In this document: positions 2,512 to 60,856 of the stretch, in pieces
How positions within the stretch are numbered: position 1 is the first letter of the stretch
Layout of the letters: every line of letters starts with the position of its first letter
Assembly: GCA_036398925.1 (NCBI GenBank)
Contig: DASWOB010000022.1
Location: 53,244 to 117,243 of the forward strand
Length of the DNA: 64,000 nucleotides
Reading direction: 5' to 3'
From: Thermoanaerobaculia bacterium
Lineage (GTDB): Bacteria; Acidobacteriota; Thermoanaerobaculia; Gp7-AA8
Position numbers and translations under genes: made by a program
Notes under the pieces: generated by a model
Told to the model about the DNA's origin: nothing
Database searches by the model: none
The model's input: the letters and a program-made list of their open reading frames with translations, nothing else

Positions 2512-4512
2512 TCAGCGGCTTCGGATGCCGGCCAGCAGGGTCCGCGCGGCGGCCCGTTGTTCTTCAGGAGCGGCGCTTTTCAACAGCGCTTCGTATTGCG
2601 CGGCCGCTTCCTGCACTCTTCCGGATTCCTGCAGGGCGATGCCGAGATTGAGCCGCGCTTTGTGGAAATCAGGCTGCAGGCGGATGGCCGTTTCGAAGGA
2701 GCGAACCGCTTCCGCGGGGCGTCGGCTCTGCACGAGGATGACGCCCAGTCCATTGTGCGGATCGGCGTAATTCGGCGACAGCTCGATCGCCTTCCGGTAC
2801 GCCGTCGCCGCGTCGCCGACGTTGGCGAGCGCACGCAGCGCGTTGCCGGCGTTGTTCCATCCGCGCGCATCGCGGGGATCGAGCTCGGTGGCGCGGCGGA
2901 AGGCATTCGCGGCAGCCTGCGCGTCGCCGCGCTGGATGAGGATCACCCCGATCGCGTTCTGCGTCGCCGCGCGCAGTGGGTCGAGCCGCGCCGATTCGGT
3001 GAGGGCCGCCAGCGCTTCATCGAGCTCGTTCGCTTCGGTCAGGGCAACACCGAGGTTGTACCAGGCGTCGGCGTCGGCCGGTGCGAGGGCGACCGTTCCG
3101 CGAAGGAGATCGACGGCGCTCTCGTTCTGCCCACCGTCGCGCTGCAGGCGCGCCAGGGCGGAGCGGAAGACCGGATTGTAGGGATCGCGGCGGACGAGAT
3201 TTTCGAGAACCGGAATGGACGTCCGTCCTCGCTCGAATTCGGTGAAGAGCGCGACCATCGCCTTCGGATCGGGACGCGTGGCGCGCCCCTGGACCGGCTG
3301 CGGCGAGACATAGCCGAGGCTCTCGAGCTTGCGGCGGGTCTCCTCGTCGACGCGCACGGCGGCCGGTACGACGGCGGTCTGGCGGATGGCGGTGAGGCGC
3401 GGAAGGAGCTCGCGCGCGGTGCGGCGTTCGTTGCTGATGACGTTGCGGATCTCGCGGGGATCGCCGGCGAGGTCGTAGAGCTCGGGATACGGCGCGCTGA
3501 TGACTTTCGTGTTCCTGTTGCGCAGCGAGGCGAGCTCGTTCCACCCGAATGTCAGCGGGTATTGCGTCTCCGCGTAAAGATCGACGGACGGAAGCGACTC
3601 GGCCAATACGTTGCGGCCGTCGACTTTGGGGAACTCGATCTCCAGCAGCGCGGCGACGGTCGGCGCGAGATCGACGGAGCTGACCGGCTCGCGCACGACG
3701 CGCGGTTCGACGTCCGGGGCGGCGATCAGCATCGGAACGTGGAGGGTGGACTGATAGAGAAGGAGGCCGTGCGTCCCTTCGCCGTGCTCGCCGAGCCCTT
3801 CGCCGTGATCGCCGACCACGATGACGATCGTGTTCTTCGTGTCGATCGCGCTGAGCAGCCGGCCGAGCTGCTGATCGACGTAGGCCACTTCGCCGTCGTA
3901 CGTCTGCGGATGCGGCGCGGGCGGCGCGTACGGCGCGTGCGCGTCCCACAGGTGCACCCAGGCAAACGAGGGCTGCTCGCTCGCCCCACCGAGCCACGCC
4001 ACTGCCCGGTCGACGACCGCATCGGCGCGACGCGCCGCCTCCAGCGAAACGTCGCCGCTCGAATCGCGCGGAATCTCGTCGTCGTACGTGTCGAAGCCGC
4101 GATCGAGACCGAAACGGTGATCGAGCACGAATGCGCCGACAAAGGCCGCGGTGCGATAGCCGTTGCGGGAGAGCGTCGTGGCGAGCGTTTCGCGGTCGGC
4201 CGGAAACGTTCCGGCGCCGTTGTTGCGCAATCCGTGATGGAGCGGGAGAAGGCCCGAAAGAATGCTCGCGTGCGCGGGCAACGTCAGTGGAACGGGCGAC
4301 TGCGCCTGCTCGAAACGAACGCCTTGCGCCGCGAGCCGGGAGAGATTCGGCGTCGTCGCGCGATCGGCCCGGAAGGTATCGAGCGTGATCAGTACGACGT
4401 TGTACTTTGGCGTTTCACGGGCGCACGCGGCGAGAAGGAGGAGCAGCGCGAGAAACGAACGATGAACGATGAAGGATGAGCGATGAACGGAGCGAGGCCA
4501 ATCCCAGTTCAT
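2512..4512 (-). CDS. Sulfatase-family hydrolase (alkaline-phosphatase superfamily) fused to C-terminal TPR repeats; probable lipoprotein (lipobox LAAC)
   Basis: 666-aa ORF. The N-terminus has NVVLITLDTFRAD and a later GDHGE motif typical of sulfatase/AP-superfamily enzymes. The C-terminal roughly 250 aa are TPR-like (AWYNLG, NAGNAL, NGLGVIL). The signal peptide ends LLLLLAACA. The start codon is embedded in a 30-bp inverted repeat (see feature 4462-4540). Confidence 0.8.
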   Translation of the reverse strand: MNWDWPRSVHRSSFIVHRSFLALLLLLAACARETPKYNVVLITLDTFRADRATTPNLSRLAAQGVRFEQAQSPVPLTLPAHASILSGLLPLHHGLRNNGAGTFPADRETLATTLSRNGYRTAAFVGAFVLDHRFGLDRGFDTYDDEIPRDSSGDVSLEAARRADAVVDRAVAWLGGASEQPSFAWVHLWDAHAPYAPPAPHPQTYDGEVAYVDQQLGRLLSAIDTKNTIVIVVGDHGEGLGEHGEGTHGLLLYQSTLHVPMLIAAPDVEPRVVREPVSSVDLAPTVAALLEIEFPKVDGRNVLAESLPSVDLYAETQYPLTFGWNELASLRNRNTKVISAPYPELYDLAGDPREIRNVISNERRTARELLPRLTAIRQTAVVPAAVRVDEETRRKLESLGYVSPQPVQGRATRPDPKAMVALFTEFERGRTSIPVLENLVRRDPYNPVFRSALARLQRDGGQNESAVDLLRGTVALAPADADAWYNLGVALTEANELDEALAALTESARLDPLRAATQNAIGVILIQRGDAQAAANAFRRATELDPRDARGWNNAGNALRALANVGDAATAYRKAIELSPNYADPHNGLGVILVQSRRPAEAVRSFETAIRLQPDFHKARLNLGIALQESGRVQEAAAQYEALLKSAAPEEQRAAARTLLAGIRSR

Positions 4513-4540
4513 CGTTCATCCTTCATCGTTCATCGTTGAT
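4462..4540. repeat. 30-bp near-perfect inverted repeat (hairpin) made of GAACGATGAA-type microrepeats at the pccB/sulfatase junction
   Basis: 4462-4491 is aacgatgaacgatgaaggatgagcgatgaa. 4508-4537 is ttcatcgttcatccttcatcgttcatcgtt. The second is the exact reverse complement of the first with one mismatch. The loop is about 16 nt. It sits directly after the pccB stop (4541) and contains the sulfatase ATG at 4510-4512. Confidence 0.75.
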
Positions 4541-6067
4541 CTACAGCGGGATGTTGCCGTGTTTTTTCGGCGGGTTCTTGTCGCGTTTGTTGCGCAGCAT
4601 GGCGAACGTGGTGATCAGCTTGCGGCGGGTGAAACGCGGCTCGATGATCTCGTCGACGTAGCCACGCTCGGCGGCGATGTAGGGGTTGGCGAATTTCTCT
4701 TTGTACTCCGCGACCTTGGCCTCGCGATCGCTGGCACCGCGATAGAGGATGTTCACAGCCCCTTCGGCGCCCATAACGGCGATCTCGGCGGTCGGGTACG
4801 CGAAGTTCATGTCCGCGCGGATGTGCTTCGAGTTCATGACGCAGTACGCGCCGCCGTAGGCCTTGCGGGTGATGACCGTGACCTTCGGGACGGTTGCTTC
4901 GGCGAGCGAATAGAGCAGCTTTGCGCCATGAATGATGATGCCGCCGTACTCCTGCGCCGTTCCGGGCAGAAATCCCGGCACGTCTTCGAAGACCAGCAGC
5001 GGGATGTTGAAGGCGTCGCAGAAACGAACGAAGCGCGCGCCTTTGCGCGACGCGTCGATGTCGAGGACCCCCGCGAGAAAGGCGGGCTGGTTGGCGACGA
5101 TGCCGATCGACTGGCCGTTGAGGCGGATGAAGCCGACCACGATGTTACGGGCGTAGTGCTGGTGCACCTCGAGGAAGTGCGATTCGTCGGCGATTGTGGT
5201 GATCAGCTCGCGGATGTCGTACGGCTGGTTGGGGCTCTCGGGGATGAAGGAGTCGAGCTGGGTGTCGACGCGATTGACGTCGTCTTTGGTAGCAACGCGC
5301 GGCGCCTCCTCCATGTTGTTGGACGGCATGTAGGAGAGGAGCTCGCGAATCAGCGCGATGCAATCCTCGTCCGATTCGGCGGCGAAGCTGGCCACGCCCG
5401 AGACCTGGTTATGAGTGTCGGCGCCGCCGAGCTTTTCCTTCGTCACCTCTTCGTGCGTGACAGTCTTGATGACGTCTGGACCGGTGACGAACATGTAGCT
5501 CGTCTTTTTCACCATCAGGATGAAGTCGGTGATGGCGGGCGAATAAACGGCCCCGCCGGCGCACGGCCCCATGATCGCGGAGATCTGCGGTACGACGCCC
5601 GAGGCGAGCGTGTTGCGGAGGAAGATGTCGGCATAGCCGCCGAGGGAGACAACGCCCTCCTGGATGCGCGCGCCGCCTGAGTCGTTCAGGCCGACCACCG
5701 GCGCGCCGTTCTTCATCGCCAGATCCATGATCTTGACGATCTTCGCGGCGTGCGTTTCGGAGAGTGAACCGCCGAAGACCGTGAAGTCCTGCGCGAAGGC
5801 GTAGACCAGGCGGCCCTGAATCGTGCCGTAGCCGGTGATGACACCGTCGCCGGGGACGCGCTGTTTTTCGAGGCCAAAGTCGGTGGAGCGGTGGGTGACG
5901 AGCTGATCGAGCTCCTGGAACGAACCGGGATCGAAGAGGAGGCTGATGCGCTCGCGCGCGGTCAGTTTTCCTTCATTGTGCTGGCGGTCGATGCGGGCCT
6001 GACCGCCGCCCATCTCGCTTTCGGCTTTGCGGCGCTCGAGCTCTTGCAGTTTTTCTTCGCGTGACAT
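4541..6067 (-). CDS. pccB: Propionyl-CoA / acyl-CoA carboxylase carboxyltransferase (beta) subunit
   Basis: 508-aa ORF with full-length similarity to the PccB/AccD5 carboxyltransferase family. Motifs include [31 protein letters not shown] and [13 protein letters not shown]. Confidence 0.9.
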
Positions 6068-6073
6068 TCGGCC

Positions 6074-6337
6074 CTACAGGATGAAGTTGCGCTCGGCGGC
6101 GATGCGGCGCATTTCGCTCCACAGTTCTTCTTCGCTCGCCTTCTTTTTCACCCGGCCCCGCGCTTCGAGCTCGATCGCGTCGGCGATCGCGAAGTTGTCG
6201 GCGAGGGTGCGCGTGACGACCAGAATCGCGGCCTCCGCGTCACCGAAGTCGATGACCCCGCGGTCTTCGAGCCGGTTGACGAGGGAGCGGGCGAGGAACT
6301 CGGTACGTTTGTCGTTGGCGCTCACGACCCGGCGCAT
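6074..6337 (-). CDS. Hypothetical small protein (87 aa) immediately upstream of pccB
   Basis: The ORF is co-oriented with pccB and 6 nt from it, and its start overlaps the stop of the upstream ORF by 1 nt (operon context). I recognise no family. Confidence 0.35.
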   Translation of the reverse strand: MRRVVSANDKRTEFLARSLVNRLEDRGVIDFGDAEAAILVVTRTLADNFAIADAIELEARGRVKKKASEEELWSEMRRIAAERNFIL

Positions 6338-7137
6338 TAAAGCATCATCTCCCCGCCGAAGGAACCCGCTCCATAGGGATAGAACGACAGAGCGGTTCCG
6401 ACGGCTCGCGGTGGTGTGATGCGGATGGTGGCGGGCCAGGCTTTCCGGCCGTCGTCGATGAGGACGTGCAGCGTGGGGCCGTGCGGCGGCGCGAGAAGGG
6501 CGATCGCGCGCGGGGCATCTTCAAGCTCATGACTGTGGCAGCGCGGCGCCAGGTGCATCGGGACGCGCAGCGGACGGACGCGGTAGCTGGGGCGATACCA
6601 GTTGCTGCCGGGCGTCTCGACGATGGGAAAGCCTTTGCCGTCGACGCCGCCCGGCTTCTGAAGGACCTCCGTCAGTTGCGAGAGGAGCGATTGCGAGACG
6701 AGCGCGGCGGCGACGTTCGGCGCGAGGCGAAGGCGCCGCGGAGTCGCCCCTTCAGCGAGGCGATCGAGCGCGCGGGCGATGCTCTCGATTTCGCCGAGGT
6801 CGAAGCTCGCCTGATCGATCAGCACGCGAAAGCGATGGCCGATGGCGAGGTGAATCCGCTCGCTGCGCTCGCTCCACTGGCGTCCGTCGCAATCGTGTTC
6901 CGCCTCCCCTTCCGCGACGATCAGACGCTCGATGGCATGCGGCGCCACGATCGCGCGGATGCGGTTGGCCACGTCACTGACGGTTTCGGCGTGCGGCGGC
7001 AGAGCGGACGCTTGCGGATCGGGACGACAGGTAAAGGTCTCGCCGTCATCGATCGCGATCCCGCTCTCCACCACCCGCACGACCACGCCGTTCTCCCACC
7101 GCACTACCCGACCGGCCTTGCGATAGATCTCGCTCAT
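6337..7137 (-). CDS. Hypothetical protein (266 aa), possible partner of the upstream TldD-like protein
   Basis: 266-aa ORF in an operon. It has a 4-nt ATGA overlap with the upstream HExxxH protein and a 1-nt overlap with the downstream small ORF. It ends GAGSFGGEMML. No recognisable motif otherwise. Confidence 0.35.
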   Translation of the reverse strand: MSEIYRKAGRVVRWENGVVVRVVESGIAIDDGETFTCRPDPQASALPPHAETVSDVANRIRAIVAPHAIERLIVAEGEAEHDCDGRQWSERSERIHLAIGHRFRVLIDQASFDLGEIESIARALDRLAEGATPRRLRLAPNVAAALVSQSLLSQLTEVLQKPGGVDGKGFPIVETPGSNWYRPSYRVRPLRVPMHLAPRCHSHELEDAPRAIALLAPPHGPTLHVLIDDGRKAWPATIRITPPRAVGTALSFYPYGAGSFGGEMML

Positions 7138-7961: not shown

Positions 7962-10021
7962 TTGATGTCGTACGTGAAGCGTTTGCTCGCTTCGTCGTAG
8001 CGGATGCTGAGGCGCTGGGAGCTGCCTGGGTTGAAGCGGACGGCCTGGATGGAGTGGTGCTCCTGGATGATGCTCGGCACCGTGACCCAGATCTGCACGT
8101 CGGCGTTCTTCGGTTGCAGCTCGCGCGTGATGTTGATCGGGCGGGAGGCGCGTGCCGCGCGGCGGAGGAAGCGCGCCGGCGTTTCGCTGTAGAGCTGTTC
8201 GTTGAGGATCACGTCGCCGCCGACGCGGACGACGATCCGTCCATCCTTGAATGCGTGCTGGAAGAACGTCGTCAGCATGGCCGGTGAGTCGGCCGGCACC
8301 CCGCTGCCGGTATCGGTCGGCGCCGCGGTCACGGTCGGCTGCGCCGCGGTCGAGACGGCGATGCGCGATCCGGCCGTGGTGCGATTGCGGCGCGCCAGCA
8401 GCTTCTGCTCCTCGGCCTGGGCGAGCTTGAGGTACTCCGCCGCCTGCATCGAGTTCGGGTTCAGGTTGAACGACTCCTGAAACTTCGCCGCCGCCTCGGA
8501 GAACTTTTTCTGCTGATAGAGCAGCAGCCCCTCATCGAACCGCTGCTGCGACTGCGTGATCCCGAGGCGCGAGACCTCTTCCTGCTGCCGGATGGCGTTC
8601 AGCTTCTGGAGGATGCCGTTCACGTACGGCGACTTCGGCGCGAGGCGGCTCAGCTCTTCGTATTTGGCGTACGCGTCGGTCACGCGACCCTGACGGAGCA
8701 GCGTGTTCGCCTGCTTGCGGAGGTCGCGCTCGCGCGCGCGCTTCGTTTCCAGCACCGTATCGACCTTCGGGGTCGGCTCGGTCCTGGAGCGAATGCCGAC
8801 GACGGCGCCGAGGAGCGCGGTGACCAGCAGGGCGGTGATGGCAAAGAAGACGGCCGGGCTGAGACGGCGGTGGATCGTGAAACCGGAGAGCGTTCTCCGC
8901 AGACGGTGGCCGATCGGAACGCCGGGCGCTTTCGGCACGGCGGGAGCGGGCGCCGTCTTCGGCGCATGCGGCCGCGTGCTGCCGCCGATCGCGGCCTGGG
9001 CCGGCGTCTCGACGGCGTCGGGGAACGGTACCTCGAGCGTCGGCACGCGCTCGCCGCTCCGATCGCGCGTGACGATCGTCTCTTCGGCGAGCACCGGATC
9101 GGGCGGACGGACCGGCTTCTCGCCACGGATCACCGCGCGGAGTGCATTCGACAGATCGCGTCCGCGCTGGTAGCGCTTGGCCGGATCTTTGGCGAGGCAG
9201 TTCGCGACGACTTCCTCGAAGCCCTCCGGGATCTGGGGGTTGATCTCGTGCAGCGGCGGAAAGGGCTCGTGCACGATCTTGTACGAGATGGAGGTCAGCG
9301 AGTCGCCGCCGAACGGCTTCCGCCGCGTCAGGCACTCGTAGAGGCAGATGCCGAGCGCGAAGAGGTCGGTGCGGCCGTCGACCGGCGCGCCTTTGATCTG
9401 CTCCGGCGCCATGTAGTTCGGCGTGCCGAGGAATTGGCCGGTGGTGGTGAGGTTCGCGGCGCCGCTGGCGATCTTGGCGATGCCGAAGTCGGTGATCTTG
9501 GCGCGGTTGCCCTCGACCAGGATGATGTTGGCCGGCTTCACGTCGCGGTGGACGATCCCCTTCGCGTGGGCGAAATCGAGCGCCTCCGCCACCTGGGCGA
9601 CCAGGTCGGCGATCTGATCGAAGGTCAGGGTGCGGCCCTGCGAGAGTACCTCTTTGAGGTTCGCCCCCTCCACGTACTCCATGGCGATGAAGTTCGTGTT
9701 GGATGGCTCGTCCATCCCGATGTCGTGGACGGTGACGATGGAAGGGTGGTTCAGGATGCCGGCGGCCTGGGCCTCGCGGATGAAGCGCTGCTGGAACTCG
9801 CGCATCTCATCGTCCTCGACGTGCATCGAGGCACGGATGGTCTTCAGCGCGACGAGGCGGCCGATGAGGGGATCTTTGGCGAGGTAGACGATGCCCATCG
9901 CCCCCTTGCCGAGCTCACGAACGACTTCATACCGTCCGAGCTTCAACTGGGAACGTTCTCCGAGGGGGCTGCGGTGACGAGTTTCCGCGCCGGGGTCGAT
10001 GGGAGTCCCATGAGCCGACAA
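7958..10021 (-). CDS. Serine/threonine protein kinase with a transmembrane segment and a C-terminal TPR-like/unknown domain
   Basis: 687-aa ORF. Hanks kinase motifs: GKGAMGIVYLAKD (Gly loop and Lys), HRDVKPANIIL (catalytic loop), DFGIAK and APEQ. There is a TM helix (AVFFAITALLVTALLGAVVGI) and TPR-like repeats after it. Confidence 0.85.
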   Translation of the reverse strand: MSAHGTPIDPGAETRHRSPLGERSQLKLGRYEVVRELGKGAMGIVYLAKDPLIGRLVALKTIRASMHVEDDEMREFQQRFIREAQAAGILNHPSIVTVHDIGMDEPSNTNFIAMEYVEGANLKEVLSQGRTLTFDQIADLVAQVAEALDFAHAKGIVHRDVKPANIILVEGNRAKITDFGIAKIASGAANLTTTGQFLGTPNYMAPEQIKGAPVDGRTDLFALGICLYECLTRRKPFGGDSLTSISYKIVHEPFPPLHEINPQIPEGFEEVVANCLAKDPAKRYQRGRDLSNALRAVIRGEKPVRPPDPVLAEETIVTRDRSGERVPTLEVPFPDAVETPAQAAIGGSTRPHAPKTAPAPAVPKAPGVPIGHRLRRTLSGFTIHRRLSPAVFFAITALLVTALLGAVVGIRSRTEPTPKVDTVLETKRARERDLRKQANTLLRQGRVTDAYAKYEELSRLAPKSPYVNGILQKLNAIRQQEEVSRLGITQSQQRFDEGLLLYQQKKFSEAAAKFQESFNLNPNSMQAAEYLKLAQAEEQKLLARRNRTTAGSRIAVSTAAQPTVTAAPTDTGSGVPADSPAMLTTFFQHAFKDGRIVVRVGGDVILNEQLYSETPARFLRRAARASRPINITRELQPKNADVQIWVTVPSIIQEHHSIQAVRFNPGSSQRLSIRYDEASKRFTYDIN

Positions 10022-12230: not shown

Positions 12231-12235
12231 GTGAC

Positions 12236-12354
12236 GAGGGCCGAGAGTAGAGGGCCGAGGGCCGAGGGAGCAGCCTCATTCCCTTGTCCCTCGGCCCTTG
12301 TCCCTCGGCCCTTGTCCCTCGGCCCTTGGCCCTCGGCCCTTGGCCCTCGGCCCT
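12236..12354. repeat. Hairpin built from tandem microrepeats: (GGGCCGAG)x3 arm versus (CCCTCGGCCCTTGK)x6 arm. It forms the EF-G terminator, followed by a T-rich tract.
   Basis: 12236-12268 is gagggccgagagtagagggccgagggccgaggg. 12282-12354 has six tandem 13-mers ccctcggcccttg(t/g) that are complementary to the left arm in several registers. tgtcttattgtttttcg follows. It lies between the convergent EF-G and PEGA genes. Confidence 0.75.
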
Positions 12355-12357
12355 GTC

Positions 12358-12990
12358 TTATTGTTTTTCGAGCGTGACGCGCAGCCGGGCCACGTCCTGC
12401 TGGGCGTCTTCCGCGGCGGTGACGATGAACTGGCGCTCGCGGTAACCGTCGGCCACGGCGCGGATGGTGTAACTGCCGGCTTGCGGCAGTTCGTAGATTT
12501 CATCCGTCGAGTCGAACTGCCTCGCCTCGCCGATCGGCATGTCGTTCACGTAGAGCATCGCGTCGGGCGGGGTGATCTCGAAGATCACGCCGCGCCGCGC
12601 CCACGTTCTCACGGTCGCGCTGACGCCGCCGGGGCCGCCGCTGACGACGGCGCGAGCATCGCCGCTGACCGGTTCGTTGGCCGATGGGACATTCTCTCCA
12701 TTGTCGCCCGGCACGACCAGCGACGCGCCGGCCTCCGGCTCTCCCGGAGGGGCCGGGCTGGTGGCGGTACGCTGCGCGCCGTTGCCCGGCACCATCTGCA
12801 CGAGCGTGCCGTCTCGATAACGCAGCCCGGTCATCACCGCGAGCGCCGCCAGTGCCGCGAGCACGACGCCGATGGCCACCGGCACCCAGCGGGGCATCGG
12901 TGCGGATTCGGGCTCGGGTGGCTGCGGCGGCTCTACCGCGGGCGGTTCAGGAAGTTGCTCCGTCATCATTCTCCGCCTGCGCGTTGTCAT
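12358..12990 (-). CDS. Membrane-anchored PEGA-domain-like protein
   Basis: 210-aa ORF. It has an N-terminal TM helix (WVPVAIGVVLAALAALAVMTGL), a Pro/Gly-rich linker and a C-terminal YTIRAVADGYRERQFIV segment resembling PEGA domains. Confidence 0.45.
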   Translation of the reverse strand: MTTRRRRMMTEQLPEPPAVEPPQPPEPESAPMPRWVPVAIGVVLAALAALAVMTGLRYRDGTLVQMVPGNGAQRTATSPAPPGEPEAGASLVVPGDNGENVPSANEPVSGDARAVVSGGPGGVSATVRTWARRGVIFEITPPDAMLYVNDMPIGEARQFDSTDEIYELPQAGSYTIRAVADGYRERQFIVTAAEDAQQDVARLRVTLEKQ

Positions 12991-28705: not shown

Positions 28706-29589
28706 TCACTCCCAGCTCGTGCCGTTCATCTCCGCGACGATCTTCGCCACTTCGATGTAGTCGGCGTTCTCCCCGAGTTGCTTGAGCGCTCCGGTGAACA
28801 GTTGCTGCGTCAGGGCGAGCATCGGCGTCGAGGCGTGCAGTTGATGCGAGAGACTGCCGGCGATGCGGATGTCTTTGTCGTGGTGGGCGAGCTTGAAGAC
28901 CAGCGGCCACTGGCCGTCGCGCAGACGCATCGGCAGCAGGTTCTCCGACGCGTTGGAACGGCCGCTGCCGGAGTTCGTGACCTCGAGGGCGGTCTTCATG
29001 TCGATGCCGAGCTGTTTGGCCAGCAGCAGGCACTCGGAGGTGATCCAGACCGTGGCGCCCATGATGGAGTTGGTCAGCACCTTGATGGCGTGGCCAGCGC
29101 CGACGTCGCCGACGTGAATGATCTTCTTTCCGTTCAGCCGCAGCACTTCCTCGGCGCGCGCAAAGTTCTCCGCTGAGCCGCCGATCATGATCGTGAGCGT
29201 GGCGTTCTCGGCCCCGACGATCGCTCCGGTGACCGGCGCATCGACGAAGCCAACCTCTTTCGCCGCCAGCCGTTTCGCCGTTTCGCGGCCGACGTTCGGA
29301 TCGCCACTGGTGGCGTCGATCCAGAGCGTGCCGGGCTTCAGATACTCGATCAGTTGATCGACGACCTCATCGACCTCTTTGCTGGTCGGGAGGATGGTGA
29401 TGATCACCTCCGTACCGCTGATCTCGCGCAGATCGTGCGCGAGGTGCGAGCCGTGCTCCCGCGCGTGCCTCTCGGCTTTCTCGCGGGTGCGGTTCCAGAC
29501 CAGCACGTCGTGCTCTTTGGCGAGGTGGCGCGCCATCGGGAAGCCCATGGCGCCGAGGCCGATGAATCCGATCTTCATGGGCAGGATCA
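28706..29589 (-). CDS. 3-hydroxyisobutyrate dehydrogenase-like NAD(P)-dependent oxidoreductase (6-PGDH NAD-binding family)
   Basis: The protein from M(ILP)MKIGFIGLGAMGFPMARHL has the classic HIBADH N-terminus, and the C-terminal helical domain is present. The real start is the ATG at about 29577-29589. The ORF-track start at 29869 is an artefact of translating the 21-bp repeat array (LPLPA repeats). Confidence 0.8.
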
Positions 29590-29693
29590 TACCGGGTGAA
29601 CGGGCCGGCTTCGGTGGCAACGAGCGGGTCGCTGTCGAGCCGTCGAGCGGCCTGACCGCGGAAGCAATCTCGCTGACGACGAAAGAGTGCGTG

Positions 29694-30075
29694 CTGGCGA
29701 TGCAAGCGCGATCGCTGGTAAGGGAAGGGCGGTGCGCCGGCAATGGAAGCGTGTTCGCTGGCAATGGAAGGGCGAGCGCTGGCAACGGAAGCGCGACCGC
29801 TGGCAACGGAAGCGCGTTCGCTGGCAACGGAAGCGCGACCGCCTGCAACGGAAGGGCGAGCGCTGGCAACGGAAGCGAGCTTTCTTACGTTGCAAGCCGC
29901 CCCGCTTCACTTGCCAGAGAACCTGGGTACGGAAGTCAGCGTGCGTTGTTGAGTTGCCAGCGGTCGCGCTCCCGTTGCCAGCGGTCGGCCTTCCGTTGCC
30001 AGCGGCCGCGCTTCCGTTGCCAGCGGTTGCCCTTCCGTTGCCAGCGGTCGTTCTTCCCGTGGCAACTGCCTTTTC
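29694..30075. repeat. Large imperfect palindrome: about 9 tandem 21-bp units (GCTGGCAACGGAAG + 7 variable nt) followed by about 6 units of the reverse complement (CGTTGCCAGCGG...CTTCC)
   Basis: 29737-29880 has repeats ctggcaa(c/t)ggaag(c/g)g(c/t)g(a/t)(c/g)cg with 21-nt period. 29950-30070 has cgttgccagcggnnnnncttc units that are exact reverse complements of the left units. A roughly 70-bp central spacer separates the arms. The array lies between the divergent HIBADH-like and DUF853 genes. Confidence 0.85.
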
Positions 30076-30217
30076 TGCACGTTCAGCGAGGTGCTGACGG
30101 CTCTCAAGCTGCTTTTCGTCAACCACTTAGCGCCGACCACGGCAGGAGCGCGCTCGCATTTCGGGCGGTTCAAGGATCGGAAGTACGAGACTCGGCACGC
30201 CATAGAATGCTCGCCTG

Positions 30218-31774
30218 ATGACGAATTTCGACGAGACGTATCGCGCTGCATACGGCTTCCCCGATCCCTCGATCACCATCGGTCACGTGCTGCGCGACGG
30301 CAAAGCGTCCGGCGAGCTCCCCATCCGCATCCCGCTGCGGATGATGAACCGCCACGGCCTGATCGCCGGCTCGACCGGCACCGGCAAGACCCGCACGCTG
30401 CAACTCCTGGCGGAGGGGCTCTCGCGCGCGGGCGTGCCGGTGTTCCTCGCCGATGTGAAGGGCGACCTGGCGGGCATCGGCACGCCGGGCGTGGCGAACG
30501 ATCGGCTCAACGCGCGCGCGGCCGGCGTCGGCGCGACGTTCACGCCCGAGGCGTTTCCGGTGGAGTTTTTCAGCCTGACCGGCAGTCGCGGCACACAGCT
30601 CCGCGCGACGGTGTCTTCGTTCGGGCCGGTGCTGCTGGGGAAGGTGCTCGACCTGACCGAGGTGCAGCAGAGCGTCCTGGCGATGGTCTTCAAATACTGC
30701 GACGACCGGAAGATGCCGCTGCTCGATTTCGACGATCTGCGCGGCGTGCTGACGTACCTCTGCAACGAAGGGAAGCCGGAGCTGAAGAACTACGGCGGCA
30801 TGTCTGCCGCGACGGTCGGCGTGCTGGTGCGGAAGATGGTGGAGCTCGAACAGCAGGGCGCCGCGAAGTTCTTCGGCGAGCCGGAGCTCGACATCCACGA
30901 CCTCACCCGCACGGTCGACGGCCGCGGCGTGGTGAACATCCTCTCGCTGGCCGACGTGCAGGACAAGCCGCGCCTCTACTCGGCGTTCCTGATGTGGCTC
31001 CTCGGGCAGTTCTACTACCGGATGCCGGAGGTCGGCGATCCCGACAAGCCGAAGCTGGTCTTCTTCTTCGACGAGGCGCATCAGCTCTTCGACGACGCCT
31101 CATCGGCGCTGGTGGAGCACATCGAGCAGGTGGCGCGCCTCATCCGCTCGAAAGGCATCGGCGTCTTCTTCATCACCCAGACCCCGAAGGACGTTGATGA
31201 GGACGTGCTGGCGCAGCTCGGCAATCGCGTGCAGCACGCCATCCGTGCCTTCACGCCAAAGGACGCGAAGAACGTCAAGGCGACGGCGTCGACCTTTCCG
31301 ATCAGCGAGCACGTCGACGTGGCCAAGTCGCTGACCACCCTCGGCATTGGCGAGGCGCTGGTGACGGTGCTCGATCCGAAGGGCGTTCCGACCGCGGTGG
31401 CGACCTTTCAGGTGCTCGCCCCCTCGTCGCTGATGACCGCGATCGACGACGCCGGCTACGCGCGGGCGCTGCAGTCGTCGGCAATCCACGCCAAGTACGC
31501 GACAGCCATCAATCGCGAGAGCGCGCACGAGATCCTCCAGCGCAAGCTCGCCGAGGCGGCGGAGGTGCAGGAGCCGGCTGCAGGCGGATCGGAGCGGCCG
31601 GACTACGGGGAGCCTGTGACCTTCGGGCAAAGGACGACTGCGCGACGAAGCTCAGCGCGCCCGCGAAAAAGCACCACCGAACGGGTGCTGCAGAACGCCG
31701 TCAATCAGGCCACCCGGACCGCCACGAGGGAGCTGACCCGCGGCATCGCCGGGATTCTCAAGCGAATGTTCTAG
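30218..31774 (+). CDS. DUF853-family (YjgR/HerA-like) P-loop ATPase
   Basis: 518-aa ORF with Walker A GSTGTGKTRT and Walker B VFFFDEAH. The overall architecture matches helicase HerA-like DUF853 proteins. Confidence 0.8.
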   Translation: MTNFDETYRAAYGFPDPSITIGHVLRDGKASGELPIRIPLRMMNRHGLIAGSTGTGKTRTLQLLAEGLSRAGVPVFLADVKGDLAGIGTPGVANDRLNARAAGVGATFTPEAFPVEFFSLTGSRGTQLRATVSSFGPVLLGKVLDLTEVQQSVLAMVFKYCDDRKMPLLDFDDLRGVLTYLCNEGKPELKNYGGMSAATVGVLVRKMVELEQQGAAKFFGEPELDIHDLTRTVDGRGVVNILSLADVQDKPRLYSAFLMWLLGQFYYRMPEVGDPDKPKLVFFFDEAHQLFDDASSALVEHIEQVARLIRSKGIGVFFITQTPKDVDEDVLAQLGNRVQHAIRAFTPKDAKNVKATASTFPISEHVDVAKSLTTLGIGEALVTVLDPKGVPTAVATFQVLAPSSLMTAIDDAGYARALQSSAIHAKYATAINRESAHEILQRKLAEAAEVQEPAAGGSERPDYGEPVTFGQRTTARRSSARPRKSTTERVLQNAVNQATRTATRELTRGIAGILKRMF

Positions 31775-45180: not shown

Positions 45181-45262
45181 GGATTGAGGATTGAGGGATT
45201 GAGGATTGAGGAAGAGGATCGCGCAGCCTTCCTCAATCCTCAATCCTCAATCCTCAATTCCC
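45181..45262. repeat. Intercistronic hairpin built from tandem heptamers: (ATTGAGG)x4 versus (CCTCAAT)x4
   Basis: ggattgaggattgagggattgaggattgaggaag ... cttcctcaatcctcaatcctcaatcctcaattcc. It fills the phoB-phoR intergenic gap, and its right arm overlaps the phoB stop codon. Confidence 0.8.
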
Positions 45263-48442: not shown

Positions 48443-49377
48443 GACGCCCCCTGCATCCGTCCCTGCATCTTCCGGATGACCAGCTGGCCGAGGCTGTTGC
48501 TGATGAAGGTGATGACGAAGAGCAGCGTGCCCATGAAGAAGAGCGCGGAGTAGTGCGCGCTGCCGACCACCACCTCACCCATCTCCGCGGCGATCGTCGC
48601 GGAGAGCGTGCGCAGCGGATCGAGCAGCGACAGCGACGTGATGGCCGCGTTGCCGCCCGCCATCAGCAGGATCATCGTCTCGCCGATGGCCCGCCCGAAC
48701 GCGAGCACGAATGACGCGAAGACCGCCGGCGCCGCGGCCGGCAGCACGACGTTCCACGCGGTCTGGAACTTCGACGCGCCGAGGGCATACGACGCCTCCC
48801 GATACGAGCGCGGCACCGCCGCCAGTCCATCCTCGGAAATCGTGTAGACGATCGGCACGAGCGCGAAGCCGAGCGCCAGTCCCGCGTTGACGGCGTTCAG
48901 CCGATAGGTGAATCCGAACGCGTCCTGCAGCCACGTCGCCAGGACGATCAGCGCGAAGAAGCCCATCACCACCGAGGGGATGCCGGCCAGCAGCTCGATG
49001 ATCGGCTTGATCACCTCGCGCAGGCGAGGCGGCGCGAACTCGGAGGAAAAAAGCGCCGCCGCGACGCCGACCGGACAGGCGAAGAGGAGGCCGACCAGCG
49101 TCGCTTTCAGCGTGCCGAGGATGATCGGGATCAGCGAGACCTTCGGACGCTCCGAGGTCGGCTGCCAGACGTAGCGATCGGTGATGGTCGGCCCTTCCTG
49201 CGCCTCGACGAAGAAGGCCTCGAGGTTGGCCTCCTTCTTCACTTCCGGGTCGGTGAAGATCGGGATCGTCTCCTTGAACGTGAAGAGAAAGATCAGAAAG
49301 ATGAAGACGATCGCCACCCAGCCGGCGATCGAAAAGACGCCGGTCATCAGCGAGTTGAACGCGTAGCGACGCCTCAT
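48439..49377 (-). CDS. pstC: Phosphate ABC transporter permease PstC
   Basis: Likely start is the ATG at 49377, overlapping the pstS stop (ATGA): MRRRYAFNSLMTG... It is polytopic with the EAA-like EASYALGASKFQTAWNVVLP. Confidence 0.85.
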   Translation of the reverse strand: MRRRYAFNSLMTGVFSIAGWVAIVFIFLIFLFTFKETIPIFTDPEVKKEANLEAFFVEAQEGPTITDRYVWQPTSERPKVSLIPIILGTLKATLVGLLFACPVGVAAALFSSEFAPPRLREVIKPIIELLAGIPSVVMGFFALIVLATWLQDAFGFTYRLNAVNAGLALGFALVPIVYTISEDGLAAVPRSYREASYALGASKFQTAWNVVLPAAAPAVFASFVLAFGRAIGETMILLMAGGNAAITSLSLLDPLRTLSATIAAEMGEVVVGSAHYSALFFMGTLLFVITFISNSLGQLVIRKMQGRMQGAS

Positions 49378-50270
49378 TTGGTGGTGCTGAGAGGCTGTGT
49401 TGTAAGAGGAAAGTAGCCGACCTGCGTGACGAGCTTCTGCGCGTCCGGCGTGACCGCCCACTGCGCGAACTTCGTCACCCGCTCCGGCGCGTTGGCGGTG
49501 TAGTAGAAGAAGAGCTTGCGGCTGAGCGGATACGTCCCGTCCGCGACCGTCGACTCATTCGGCTCGACCGGCGCCTTGCCGCTGTCGGAGATACCGAGCG
49601 GGCGGACTTCCTTGGCGTAGGCGATGCCGCCATAACCGATGCCGTTCTTGTCCTGGCCGACCGCGTTGATGATGGCCGCGGTCCCCTGCAGCGTCTGCAC
49701 GCGCGGCGAAAAGTCTTCCTTCGCCAGGACGTGCTCGCGGAAGTAGTCGTACGTACCGGACGAGCTCTCGCGGCCGTAAAGCACGATCGGTGCGTTCGTC
49801 CCGCCGAGCTGCTGCCAGTTCGTGACCTTCCCCTGGAAGACGTCCTTCACCTGCGCGACGGTCAGCGTCCTGACCGGATTGGAGGCGTGCACGAACACCG
49901 CGAGGGCATCGAGCGCCACCGCGTGCTCGACCACCTCGGCGCCACGGCTCTTCGCCGCCTTCGCCTTCTCATCACCCTTCATCGGGCGCGACGACTGCGC
50001 GAGGTCGACTGTCCCGTTGATCAGCGCCGCGATCCCGGTGCCGCTGCCGCCCCCATTGACCTGCACCACCGTCCCGGCATTTGCCTTCATGTACTCCTCG
50101 GCCAGCCGCTGCCCGAGGATGACCATCGTGTCCGATCCCTTGATCGAAAGCGGCTTGCTGTTCCCGCCGCTCTTCGGCGCCGCACCATCGGAGCTCCTGC
50201 GCTCCCCCCCACCACACCCGACGGTGAGCACGAGCGCCGCTGTAAAGACAATTCGAGCCACAGAGTTCAT
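49374..50270 (-). CDS. pstS: Phosphate ABC transporter substrate-binding lipoprotein PstS
   Basis: 298-aa ORF with lipobox LTVGCGG. It has GSDT, NGGGSGTG and other PstS/PBP-like motifs. It is the first gene of the pst operon. Confidence 0.85.
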   Translation of the reverse strand: MNSVARIVFTAALVLTVGCGGGERRSSDGAAPKSGGNSKPLSIKGSDTMVILGQRLAEEYMKANAGTVVQVNGGGSGTGIAALINGTVDLAQSSRPMKGDEKAKAAKSRGAEVVEHAVALDALAVFVHASNPVRTLTVAQVKDVFQGKVTNWQQLGGTNAPIVLYGRESSSGTYDYFREHVLAKEDFSPRVQTLQGTAAIINAVGQDKNGIGYGGIAYAKEVRPLGISDSGKAPVEPNESTVADGTYPLSRKLFFYYTANAPERVTKFAQWAVTPDAQKLVTQVGYFPLTTQPLSTTK

Positions 50271-50605: not shown

Positions 50606-50815
50606 CCTTCAACTTTAAGGGCGAACGCTTAAAGTTGAAGAACGATCGCTTCAACTTTGAGAACGATCGCTTCAGTTTTAAGAACGATCGCTTCAACTTT
50701 AAGAACAATCGCTTCAACTTTAAGGACGATCGCTTCAACTTTAAGGGCGATCGCTTCAGTTTTAAGGGCGATCGCTTCAACTTTAAGGACGATCGCTTCA
50801 ACTTTAAGGACGATT
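50606..50815. repeat. About 10 tandem copies of a 21-bp repeat (CGATCGCTTCAACTTTAAGGA consensus), AT-richer than the genome
   Basis: 50606-50815 reads aacgcttaaagttgaag aacgatcgcttcaactttgag aacgatcgcttcagttttaag ... gacgatcgcttcaactttaag. Each unit contains the palindromic CGATCG and the imperfect palindrome CTTCAACTTTAAG. It lies in the divergent intergenic region between pstS and gene 50933..51418. Confidence 0.85.
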
Positions 50816-54386: not shown

Positions 54387-55553
54387 ATGGCAACAGCACA
54401 GCCGACGGTCGACCATGACGAGATTCGCGAATGGGTGGAGGCGCGCGGCGGGCATCCCGCGGCGGTGCGCGCAACCGGATCGGGCAACGACCCCGGCATC
54501 CTGCGCATCGATTTCCCCGGCTTTTCGGGCGAGGACACGCTCGAAGAGATCGAGTGGGAGGAGTTCTTCGACTGGTTCGAGAAGAACAACCTCGCGCTCC
54601 TGCTCTCCGATGAAGAGGGCAACCGCTTCAACAAGCTGGTGAGCCGCGAAGCGCTGGCCGGTGCGTCGTCGTCATCGAAGCGCGGCTCGCGCGGAGGCGG
54701 CGCGAAGAAAGCCTCGTCGAAGACGTCGAGCAGCGGTGCGAAAAAGGCGGGCAGCTCGCGCAGCATGAAGAAGGAGTCGTCGTTGTCATCGCGCGGTGGC
54801 GGCAGCAGGAAAGCCGCGGCATCGACCAGGAAGGCCGCCAGCTCGAAGAAGGCCTCGTCGTCGACGAAGAAGGCCTCCGGCGCCGGATCGACCAGGAAGG
54901 CCGCCCCGGCGAAGAAGGCCGCGTCTACCTCCTCGAAGAAGAGCTCCACCAGCGACAAGTCGCGCGGCACCACCGCCAAGAAGACTTCGGCTTCGACGAA
55001 GAAGGCCTCAGCCTCCACGAAGAAAGCGTCAGCCTCCTCGAAGAAAGCCTCGGCATCCTCGAAGAAAGCCGCGGGATCCTCCAGGAAAGCCGCGACCTCT
55101 TCGAAGAAGACCACCACCAGGAAGAGCACCTCCACGAAAACCGCCAGTGCCGCGTCGCGTGGCGGCAGCAAGAAAGCCACGAGCTCGACGAAGCGCGCCA
55201 GCGGCCCGATCTCGAGCGGCGGCCGCAAAGCATCGGGCGCCTCCTCGAAGAAAGCCTCCTCCTCGAAAGGATCTTCGAAGAAGAGCAGCGGCAGCTCCGT
55301 CACCACCACCAACCACGACGAGATCCGCAACTGGGTCGAAGCGCGCGGCGGCTTCCCCGCGCACGTGAAACGCACCGGCTCGCGCCGCGGCGATCTCGGC
55401 GTGCTGCGCATCGACTACCCCGGCTTCTCCGGCACCGACACGCTGGAGCGGATCGACTGGGAGGAGTGGTTCGCCGCGTTCGACCGGAACAAGCTGGCCT
55501 TCCTCTACCAGGACAAACGCAACTCCCGGTTCTCGAAGCTGGTGGCACGCTAG
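54387..55553 (+). CDS. Protein with two copies of an about 75-aa conserved domain flanking an about 230-aa histone-H1-like Lys/Ser/Ala-rich linker
   Basis: ATG at 54387 with SD ggagga 8 nt upstream. N-terminal domain: TVDHDEIREWVEARGGHPAAVRATGSGNDPGILRIDFPGFSGEDTLEEIEWEEFFDWFEKNNLALLLSDEEGNRFNKLVSRE. C-terminal domain: TTNHDEIRNWVEARGGFPAHVKRTGSRRGDLGVLRIDYPGFSGTDTLERIDWEEWFAAFDRNKLAFLYQDKRNSRFSKLVAR. The linker is (KKAS/STKKASA)n. The ORF-track start at 54237 is an upstream extension. Confidence 0.6.
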   Translation: MATAQPTVDHDEIREWVEARGGHPAAVRATGSGNDPGILRIDFPGFSGEDTLEEIEWEEFFDWFEKNNLALLLSDEEGNRFNKLVSREALAGASSSSKRGSRGGGAKKASSKTSSSGAKKAGSSRSMKKESSLSSRGGGSRKAAASTRKAASSKKASSSTKKASGAGSTRKAAPAKKAASTSSKKSSTSDKSRGTTAKKTSASTKKASASTKKASASSKKASASSKKAAGSSRKAATSSKKTTTRKSTSTKTASAASRGGSKKATSSTKRASGPISSGGRKASGASSKKASSSKGSSKKSSGSSVTTTNHDEIRNWVEARGGFPAHVKRTGSRRGDLGVLRIDYPGFSGTDTLERIDWEEWFAAFDRNKLAFLYQDKRNSRFSKLVAR

Positions 55554-58599: not shown

Positions 58600-58665
58600 A
58601 GCGTTCCTCGGGGTTCCTCGGGTCCGGGTTCCGCCGAGGAACCGAGGAGCTCCGAGGAACCGACG
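58600..58665. repeat. Convergent-gene hairpin built from tandem nonamers: (GTTCCTCGG)x3 versus (CCGAGGAAC)x3
   Basis: gcgttcctcggggttcctcgggtccgggttccgccgaggaaccgaggagctccgaggaaccgacgaacc lies between the YdiJ-like stop (58508) and the KGG protein stop (58675). Confidence 0.75.
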
Positions 58666-58674
58666 AACCGGCTC

Positions 58675-60763: not shown

Positions 60764-60856
60764 TGGCGGAGAGAGAGGGATTCGAACCCTCGGTAGAGCT
60801 TTAGACCCTACGGCGGTTTAGCAAACCGCTGGTTTCAGCCACTCACCCATCTCTCC
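60764..60856 (-). tRNA. tRNA-Ser (anticodon GCU), class II with long variable arm
   Basis: The reverse complement folds as GGAGAGA-UG-GGUGAGUGGCUGAAACC-A-GCGGU UUGCUAA ACCGC-variable arm CGUAGGGUCUAAAGCUCUACCG-GAGGG UUCGAAU CCCUC-UCUCUCC-G-CCA. Anticodon loop UU-GCU-AA. The T-loop GTTCGAATC is present and CCA is encoded. Confidence 0.8.

Follow-up and report, generated by a model that had tools for sequence, protein, structure and literature searches.

In the window, the 64-kb stretch of Thermoanaerobaculia DNA analysed here, the region between a divergent HIBADH-like dehydrogenase gene and a HerA_C/DUF853 ATPase gene is largely occupied, at about 29651-30092 (degenerate edge units counted), by an imperfect palindrome consisting of two head-to-head arrays of a 21-nt unit. 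On balance, we read this element as one copy of a small, lineage-restricted and dispersed family of non-coding palindromic minisatellites of Thermoanaerobaculia (Acidobacteriota) that was recently gained at this locus, the evidence for the family coming from only six known copies. How dispersed tandem-array repeats such as the cyanobacterial STRR and the Xanthomonas GGGAATC repeats spread has been an open question since their first description. Compared with the known arrays, what is new here is a composite 21-nt unit in dispersed inverted pairs in uncultured soil Acidobacteria. With a long and specific core that can be searched exactly, and with at least one occupied site that has clean empty counterparts, the family provides a tractable case for studying junctions, carriers and a co-occurring protein.

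Architecture of the element

An earlier note on this DNA, made from the sequence alone, had described inverted 21-bp arrays between divergent HIBADH-like and DUF853 genes, and this description was confirmed by TRF, core counts, fold prediction, and ORF and Pfam assignments (Table 1). The window belongs to a 142-kb JGI metagenome contig (3300034146, Ga0334964_000031), and NCBI lists the identical HerA-like protein under a Thermoanaerobaculia bacterium MAG. The unit of the window element consists of a 14-nt core, GCTGGCAACGGAAG, and a 7-nt linker, 21 nt in total, and its three heptamer sub-blocks are mutually unrelated. TRF reported a 21-nt array at 29693-29877 with 8.8 copies and its reverse complement at 29953-30057 with 5.0 copies, and a repeat finder uncovered inverted arms of up to 138 nt with a complementarity of 78-85% at this locus. 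When up to two mismatches were allowed, 13 matches to the core were found in the window (GC content, 65.5%), compared with 0.66 expected; every one of them lies at the 29651-30092 locus, no single site being present elsewhere in the window, and none of the shuffles reached this number.

In the left arm, the eight inner units (29714-29875) match the core with up to two mismatches and the outer three (29651, 29672 and 29693) are degenerate. In the right arm, good units run from 29948/29969 to 30045 and are followed by a degenerate unit at 30053, and the three positions proximal to the centre (29884, 29905 and 29922) are also degenerate. What had been taken for a 70-bp spacer holds these three units, of which those at 29884 and 29905 are inverted and the flipped one at 29922 is direct; the arms therefore abut, with the dyad centre near 29880. 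The right arm is also not the exact reverse complement that it had been supposed to be, because the cores match but the linker sets differ, and the best local arm-arm complementarity is 85-87%. The left-arm linkers are chiefly CGCGACC, GGCGAGC and CGCGTTC, and those of the right arm (GGTCGCG, GGTCGGC, GGCCGCG, GGTTGCC and GGTCGTT) do not form a mirror image of this set. One outer left-arm unit retains CGCGATC, a linker common to copies in other genomes. The right-arm sequence GTTGCCAGCGGTCGGCC (29948-30045), or GTTGCCAGCGGT, presumably resembles a conserved segment of bacterial 16S rRNA, probably by coincidence.

As single-stranded DNA, the window element is predicted to fold with an energy of -177 kcal/mol (z = -13 versus shuffles), supporting the earlier proposal that a very long hairpin or cruciform is possible. 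Because 21 nt equals seven codons, such arrays yield false ORFs and false N-terminal extensions in the gene calls of Acidobacteria MAGs. Two extensions of this kind had been described at this locus, and one of them, in the HIBADH ORF at 28706-29869 (minus strand), was indeed found, whereas the ORF at 29687-30097 (plus strand) is a free-standing spurious ORF that does not extend DUF853.

Table 1. Features of the window locus (window positions) and genes flanking the six known copies of the element
Feature	Position	Strand	Description
HIBADH-like dehydrogenase gene	28706..29578	-	NAD_binding_2 and NAD_binding_11 (Pfam); conserved start MKIGFIGLG
Divergent intergenic region	29579..30217		639 bp, versus 30 bp in L095 and 55 bp in L096
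-10-like hexamer TATGAT	29586..29591	-	Near the HIBADH start; a comparable box adjoins the start in L095 and L096
Left arm	29651..29875	+	11 unit positions of GCTGGCAACGGAAG plus 7 nt, as assembled
Dyad centre cgagcttt	29876..29883		Between the last direct and the first inverted unit
Right arm	29884..30066	+	Reverse-complement units CTTCCGTTGCCAGC plus 7 nt
Outermost decayed right-arm remnant	30067..30092		In the predicted fold, TCAGCGAG pairs with CTCGCTGA at 29668-29678
-10-like hexamer TAGAAT	30203..30208	+	9 nt before the DUF853 ATG; ccATAnAaT common to L095 and L096
HerA_C/DUF853 ATPase gene	30218..31774	+	From the ORF list and Pfam
Window copy			HIBADH-like / HerA-like; divergent
L011 copy			Ig-like / GntR; divergent
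L002 copy			Uma2 / LptE; convergent
L006 copy			CHAT / subtilase; convergent
L004 copy			Enoyl-CoA hydratase / aldo-keto reductase; tandem
L003 copy			Contig end / XRE regulator, with a BrkB-family gene next; arrangement not classifiable

Empty sites in the closest relatives

The closest relatives found, L095 and L096, whose HerA-like proteins are 87% and 83% identical to that of the window, respectively, keep the divergent HIBADH and HerA-like genes followed by genes for a ferredoxin, a GreA-domain protein and a Mur ligase, and L095 also retains peptidase S46 and short-chain dehydrogenase genes on the opposite side. Their HIBADH orthologues begin at the same residues as the window gene. No unit array was present at 80 orthologous HerA-like loci from GTDB species representatives of Thermoanaerobaculia, other Acidobacteriota and Gemmatimonadota; comparison of the locus in related genomes, which the earlier note had proposed, hence revealed no shared array.

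In the window, about 600 extra bp lie between two -10-like boxes, which we interpret from their sequence as putative promoters. Of this extra sequence, about 60 bp at the left end and about 125 bp at the right end are not recognisably repeat. These comparisons show that the element was gained in this lineage, inside what appears in the nearest relatives as a shared promoter region of 30-55 bp. The suggestion that the arrays are phased regulator sites of this divergent promoter does not agree with the short gap in the relatives (30/55 bp), with the occurrence of the unit at 0 of the 80 orthologous loci, or with the position of the element between unrelated genes elsewhere. The consequence of the gain at the window locus is most likely only structural, in that the element would replace the sequence upstream of both promoters (-35 and beyond) and would offer a potential cruciform or bidirectional hairpin. 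No evidence for a dedicated regulatory function at this locus was seen in our analysis.

The start-to-start sequence in L095 reads CAT-ggccgcgcAGTTTATccATAAACTccgggc-ATG. The whole 30-bp inter-start region (L095 3971-4000) is centred on a perfect inverted repeat, AGTTTAT-cc-ATAAACT, which could represent two back-to-back -10 boxes or an operator, and both L095 genes would by implication have very short 5' leaders or none. A scan of the window locus identified no sigma-70 consensus promoter, and terminator-like sites were at chance level. An outward TTGCCA resembling a -35 box, located in the reverse complement of the unit in both arms, was dropped as no -10 box lies at 16-18 nt, and sigma-54 and ECF-type matches, judged by eye, were weak and inconsistent across the linker variants.

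Copies of the element between unrelated genes

An exact two-unit pattern, TGGCAAYGGAAG-N9-TGGCAAYGGAAG, with a chance expectation far below one, was searched in metagenome contigs. Thirteen contigs matched, and five of them (L002, L003, L004, L006 and L011) carry the same element. The GC contents of these carriers are 0.62-0.68; L002 comes from one metagenome and the other four from Ga0157377, and the best named homologues of L004 and L011 mark these two as Thermoanaerobaculia-like. The other eight matches do not belong to the family: on visual inspection, L009, L010 and L014 resemble coding repeats in a single orientation, and L005, L007, L008, L012 and L013 (GC content, 0.34-0.53), having only one-orientation matches, were set outside it. 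A coding repeat was rejected as an explanation of the element because it is palindromic, dispersed and absent from orthologues. No match to the element was found in viral contigs, plasmids or phages.

The six known copies, including that of the window, have the same core, the same 21-nt unit and the same ->->-> <-<-<- layout, and all are non-coding and 310-440 bp in length, the five outside the window measuring 310-390 bp. Similarity between copies stops at the array edges, and among the six there are neither shared flanks nor a terminal motif beyond the unit. Two copies lie between divergent genes, two between convergent genes and one between tandem genes, so that in these small numbers the family has no bias towards gene 3' ends. 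The element is not carried along with its flanking genes; its copies lie between unrelated genes in any orientation. Moreover, the four contigs from one metagenome have common linker variants and a related centre, suggesting that the element is present in multiple copies within one genome.

The absence of the element from relatives was checked a second time at unrelated genes: the sites of the L004 and L011 copies are without the unit in relatives at 81-88% protein identity, and at the L004 site the relatives have a hypothetical gene or plain sequence in the place of the element. This hypothetical gene, between the enoyl-CoA hydratase and aldo-keto reductase genes, is found at L099 2195-2968, L100 929-1681, L102 1592-2485 and L097 2739-2948; its product has 250-297 aa and no Pfam domain in the first three and is shrunk to 69 aa in L097. 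Since the 21-nt element and an octamer array (see below) occupy the place of this gene in L004, the element may have replaced a gene there. Neither a target-site duplication nor a flanking direct repeat was found, the edges being decayed and the nearest empty sites (83-87% protein identity) too diverged for the junctions to be read.

Variation of arms and linkers around a constant core

Counted with up to two mismatches, the six elements have 8/5, 5/8, 9/2, 2/10, 6/4 and 9/3 units per arm. Each arm behaves as a tandem array of its own, with a homogeneous middle and decay at both edges, as is typically left by slippage or unequal exchange within an array. Linker sets vary from lineage to lineage and also between the arms of a single element. 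As both unit numbers and linker sets differ between arms, an arm is likely to change by 21-nt slippage; the earlier view of the array as slippage-prone is thus borne out by the wide variation of units per arm among family members and by their arm-specific linker sets. The copies from Ga0157377 have the linkers CGTGATC, AAAAATC, CGCGATC and CGTGCAC, and the CGCGATC of an outer, older unit of the window element would fit descent from the same ancestral unit. Different from the linker, which drifts, the modal 14-nt core is identical in all six elements, which come from at least three metagenomes. This identity of the core across genomes, set against linkers that differ, is a hint of sequence-specific constraint, for which an entirely neutral or selfish view does not account.

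Several linkers are self-complementary with the next base or two (CGTGCAC+G / CGTGCACG, and GCGATCGC), and the dyad centre in L006 and L011 has the sequence GAAG-CGTG|CACG-CTTC, close variants of which are found in L002 and L004. These dyad-centre sequences hint that the inverted junction was formed via strand switching at a palindromic linker. We therefore propose that the arms would lengthen and shorten in steps of 21 nt through replication slippage or unequal exchange, and that the head-to-head junction would result from strand switching at a self-complementary linker. Spread to new intergenic sites would in addition need some copy mechanism, for which a trans-acting protein recognising the conserved core, or hairpin DNA, would be the likeliest route because no coding capacity, terminal repeats or target-site duplications were found in the element. 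Transposition stays a proposal, as no mobilising gene, distinct terminal sequence or target-site duplication was found. A more far-reaching reading, which we regard as speculative and rather unlikely, is that the core is the recognition site of a putative trans-acting Thermoanaerobaculia protein and that the elements are a new protein-recognised, self-expanding palindromic 'iteron', which would be copied through its hairpin or core, would be amplified by steps of 21 nt and might also act as a bidirectional barrier or insulator; the much more numerous inverted heptamer arrays described below would be its small-unit version.

Alternative explanations

The constancy of the core also bears on the foremost alternative, a functional phased protein-binding array, in which a protein would coat the 14-bp cores along one helical face at a spacing of two turns. 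The opposed arrays would then serve as a bidirectional barrier or insulator (a roadblock for RNA polymerase or the replication fork) or as a landing pad in nucleoid organisation or partition, a layout known from iteron, centromere and fork-barrier arrays. In line with this, of 66 spacings between successive same-orientation units across the family, 62 are exactly 21 nt and the remaining four 22 nt, in agreement with the strict phasing noted earlier, and the arms have one polarity throughout, their GAAG ends pointing to the centre in 6/6 copies. However, common ancestry of the copies would make this uniform polarity trivial, and the information content of the core is inflated by the way in which the units were selected. 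Furthermore, none of the copies has a linked gene for a candidate protein, the window has no single core site elsewhere, an arm may comprise anything from 2 to 11 units, the element is missing from close relatives at three loci, and no GC-skew switch marking an origin or terminus is present at the window locus. We consider a binding array unlikely on these grounds, although the two accounts would overlap if mobilisation of the element were due to the same binding protein.

Still less likely, in our view, is an element that acts at the RNA level, whether as a long hairpin serving as a bidirectional terminator, as a REP-like stabiliser of mRNA 3' ends or as a source of structured or processed RNA. 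The very stable predicted fold, the location of two family members between convergent genes and the finding that most Xanthomonas arrays are transcribed (PMC4692102) are consistent with such a role, as are the related inverted pairs of 7-9-nt arrays, which by crude ORF calls lie at gene 3' ends (16 convergent, 15 tandem and 2 divergent). But the window and L011 copies are situated between divergent genes, where there is nothing to terminate, and the arrays are probably upstream of both transcripts in the window, since the -10-like boxes hug both start codons. Local arm-arm complementarity across the family is 77-89% over 64-109 nt, and among the arm mismatches, those of the G-U type number 17 for one strand and 20 for the opposite one, compared with 50 that are non-wobble, with no G-U bias on either strand. 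As the arms are not mirror images and no such bias exists, full-length pairing, in DNA or RNA, is not visibly selected; in addition, most of the long arm cannot pair where the arms are very unequal. At a permissive E-value, Rfam returned for the locus only models of long-hairpin miRNA precursors, which were far below threshold (75 versus 137 bits).

Independent origin in place, with slippage from a chance seed at each locus and no copying between loci, is improbable. It would account for array edges that fade into the flanks without a sharp boundary or target-site duplication, and these lineages do generate many arrays with locus-specific units. Against it, unrelated loci in different metagenomes have in common the 14-nt core, the unit length of 21 nt, the linkers CGCGATC, CGTGATC, AAAAATC and CGTGCAC, and a related degenerate centre, and an independent origin of all these shared features is very improbable. 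Finally, although the source is a short-read metagenome contig and the unit numbers of 21-nt arrays are hard to assemble exactly, an assembly artefact, whether through collapsed or expanded repeats, as considered in the earlier note, or through chimeric ones, is hardly credible, given that the same architecture is present on five other contigs from other samples, that the L011 copy recurs base-for-base over 465 bp in a separately assembled ENA contig (L103), and that the distinguishing linker variants permit unique assembly.

Comparison with known repeat systems

For the dispersed palindromic minisatellite that we favour, the closest described phenomenon is the paired heptamer arrays of Xanthomonas (GGGAATC) and Nostoc (GGGGAYT), in which one conserved unit forms tandem arrays over many intergenic sites, often as inverted pairs capable of forming stem-loops or cruciforms. 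In Xanthomonas, there are about 190 sites per genome and 70-75 cases per genome in which two arrays converge (Rehm et al. 2015, PMC4692102); location between divergent genes is rare (7-8%), and the arrays lie at different genes in two related species, have no link to IS elements and are mostly transcribed (PMC4692102). The present family likewise has a variable unit number and is not found at the same genes in relatives (absent at three loci and at the 80 orthologous loci). Different from the simple 7-nt repeat of Xanthomonas, its 21-nt unit combines a constant 14-nt core with a variable 7-nt linker and, as it contains no G-tracts (runs of at least three G), has no quadruplex potential. It also belongs to a different phylum, has six known copies compared with about 190 arrays per genome, and is located between divergent genes in two of the five classifiable copies.

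According to Mrazek et al. 2007, as cited in PMC4679880 and PMC4692102, heptamers are the most over-represented class of long SSRs in many bacteria, and polymerase slippage was proposed for them. As they are outlined in the literature, cyanobacterial STRR heptanucleotide repeats resemble the arrays described here in being lineage-typical, of period 7 (21 = 3 x 7) and located in non-coding DNA, but they are mostly simple direct arrays, unlike the composite unit and palindromic two-arm layout of the present family. MITEs and REP/REPIN sequences have been reviewed (PMC3184786, PMC3733652). The element is comparable to them as well, being short, non-coding, hairpin-forming and intergenic, lying at unrelated loci and varying in presence between related genomes. 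All six copies fall below the roughly 500 bp of a MITE. Yet no distinct terminal inverted repeat or target-site duplication was found in the family. In contrast to REP units, which are imperfect palindromes of 20-40 nt with a GTAG or CGTC tag, its unit has no such tag and is not itself a palindrome, about 8 of 15 positions being self-complementary by eye, and no Y1 transposase (RAYT) is encoded by the neighbouring genes scanned at the window and copy loci. The body of the element consists instead of paired tandem arrays of variable length, which to our knowledge is not a described architecture of MITEs or REPs. The earlier concern that the units are widespread as an IS or MITE repeat is thus partly justified: the family is dispersed, with a MITE-like distribution, but no parent IS was found in viral contigs, plasmids or phages, and no distinct terminal repeat or target-site duplication at the copies.

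The earlier judgement that the arrays are not a CRISPR holds, since the 'spacers' are of 7 nt and drawn from a handful of variants, in contrast to the unique spacers that separate CRISPR repeats of about 21-48 nt and are similar to them in length, and the units occur in two opposed orientations. Among the Pfam families of the genes called up to 10 kb away in both directions, none is a Cas family, several small genes there being without a Pfam match. Plasmid iterons, centromere-like arrays and Tn7/Mu-type multi-site ends have units of 17-22 bp in helical phase, with a conserved core, a variable spacer and opposed groups, and the present family resembles them in its phased units, conserved core and opposed orientation. 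Unlike in these systems, no rep or par gene flanks any copy, no transposase adjoins, no plasmid matches, and an arm contains up to 11 contiguous units in very variable numbers; in addition, no TG...CA termini or 5-bp duplications were seen, and the element is chromosomal and dispersed. In the whole window, the sole Rfam match above the gathering threshold is a tRNA gene at 60767-60856 (minus strand).

Heptamer and other arrays in the same lineages

The 21-nt family belongs to a wider tendency of these lineages. Among arrays with at least three copies in 1.03 Mb of DNA from Thermoanaerobaculia and Gemmatimonadota, period 7 predominates: a first count yielded 85 such arrays, compared with 21 of period 8 and 15 with a period of 21. 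The final set contained 113 heptamer arrays, of which 59 have a reverse-complement partner within 200 nt and 4 a same-orientation partner. Paired hairpins at the ends of genes make up half of these arrays, which matters for the prediction of terminators and operons. The same heptamers recur at non-orthologous sites among the surveyed loci, for example GAATGTT in L004, L038 and L057, and AGATGGC twice in L036.

In the window, inverted heptamers (GAACGAT x4.7 / GTTCATC x5) are located at 4457-4541, at the 3' end of a carboxyltransferase gene, and the same GAACGAT pair is found after a phosphofructokinase gene at L097 1761-1832, a non-orthologous site in another genome. At 12235-12354, CGAGGGC x4.9 and CCCTCGG x9.6, with a 14-nt super-unit CCCTTGTCCCTCGG, lie between convergent genes and are followed by a T-rich stretch; by their sequence, these arrays look like a terminator made of tandem heptamers. 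Further structures of an array and an inverted array are present at 45181-45258 (GGATTGA / TCCTCAA) and 58603-58670 (GTTCCTCGGG / CCGAGGAA). The 21-nt and 15-nt tandem repeats at 54978-55146, consisting of AAGAAGACCTCAGCCTCCACG and similar units, may be a coding low-complexity repeat.

A second 21-nt array in the window, at 50606-50815, contains 10 units of GCTTCAACTTTAAG plus GACGATC with a match of about 87%, the core of its second unit being internally inverted. This array is situated upstream of a gene for a PstS-like phosphate-binding protein (49374-50270, minus strand), where the divergent intergenic region measures 663 bp. In register, 12 of the 21 positions are shared with the focal unit, including the core ends GCT...AAG and the GATC of the linker, and 3.3% of shuffles do as well. 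This unit, which was not found in any other surveyed locus, may represent a sister family.

In L004, an 8-nt array (ACCCCGCA x6.4, at 6299-6349) directly adjoins the 21-nt element, and the same octamer occurs 2.7 kb away as an inverted pair (9033-9212). Because the octamer array abuts the element and recurs at this short distance, array families appear to cluster together. L006 has another 21-nt array, ACCTGGACATCGAGGTCCGCA x12, at 12680-12934 with a match of 91%, about 900 nt from its focal-type element and on the 5' side of the subtilase gene.
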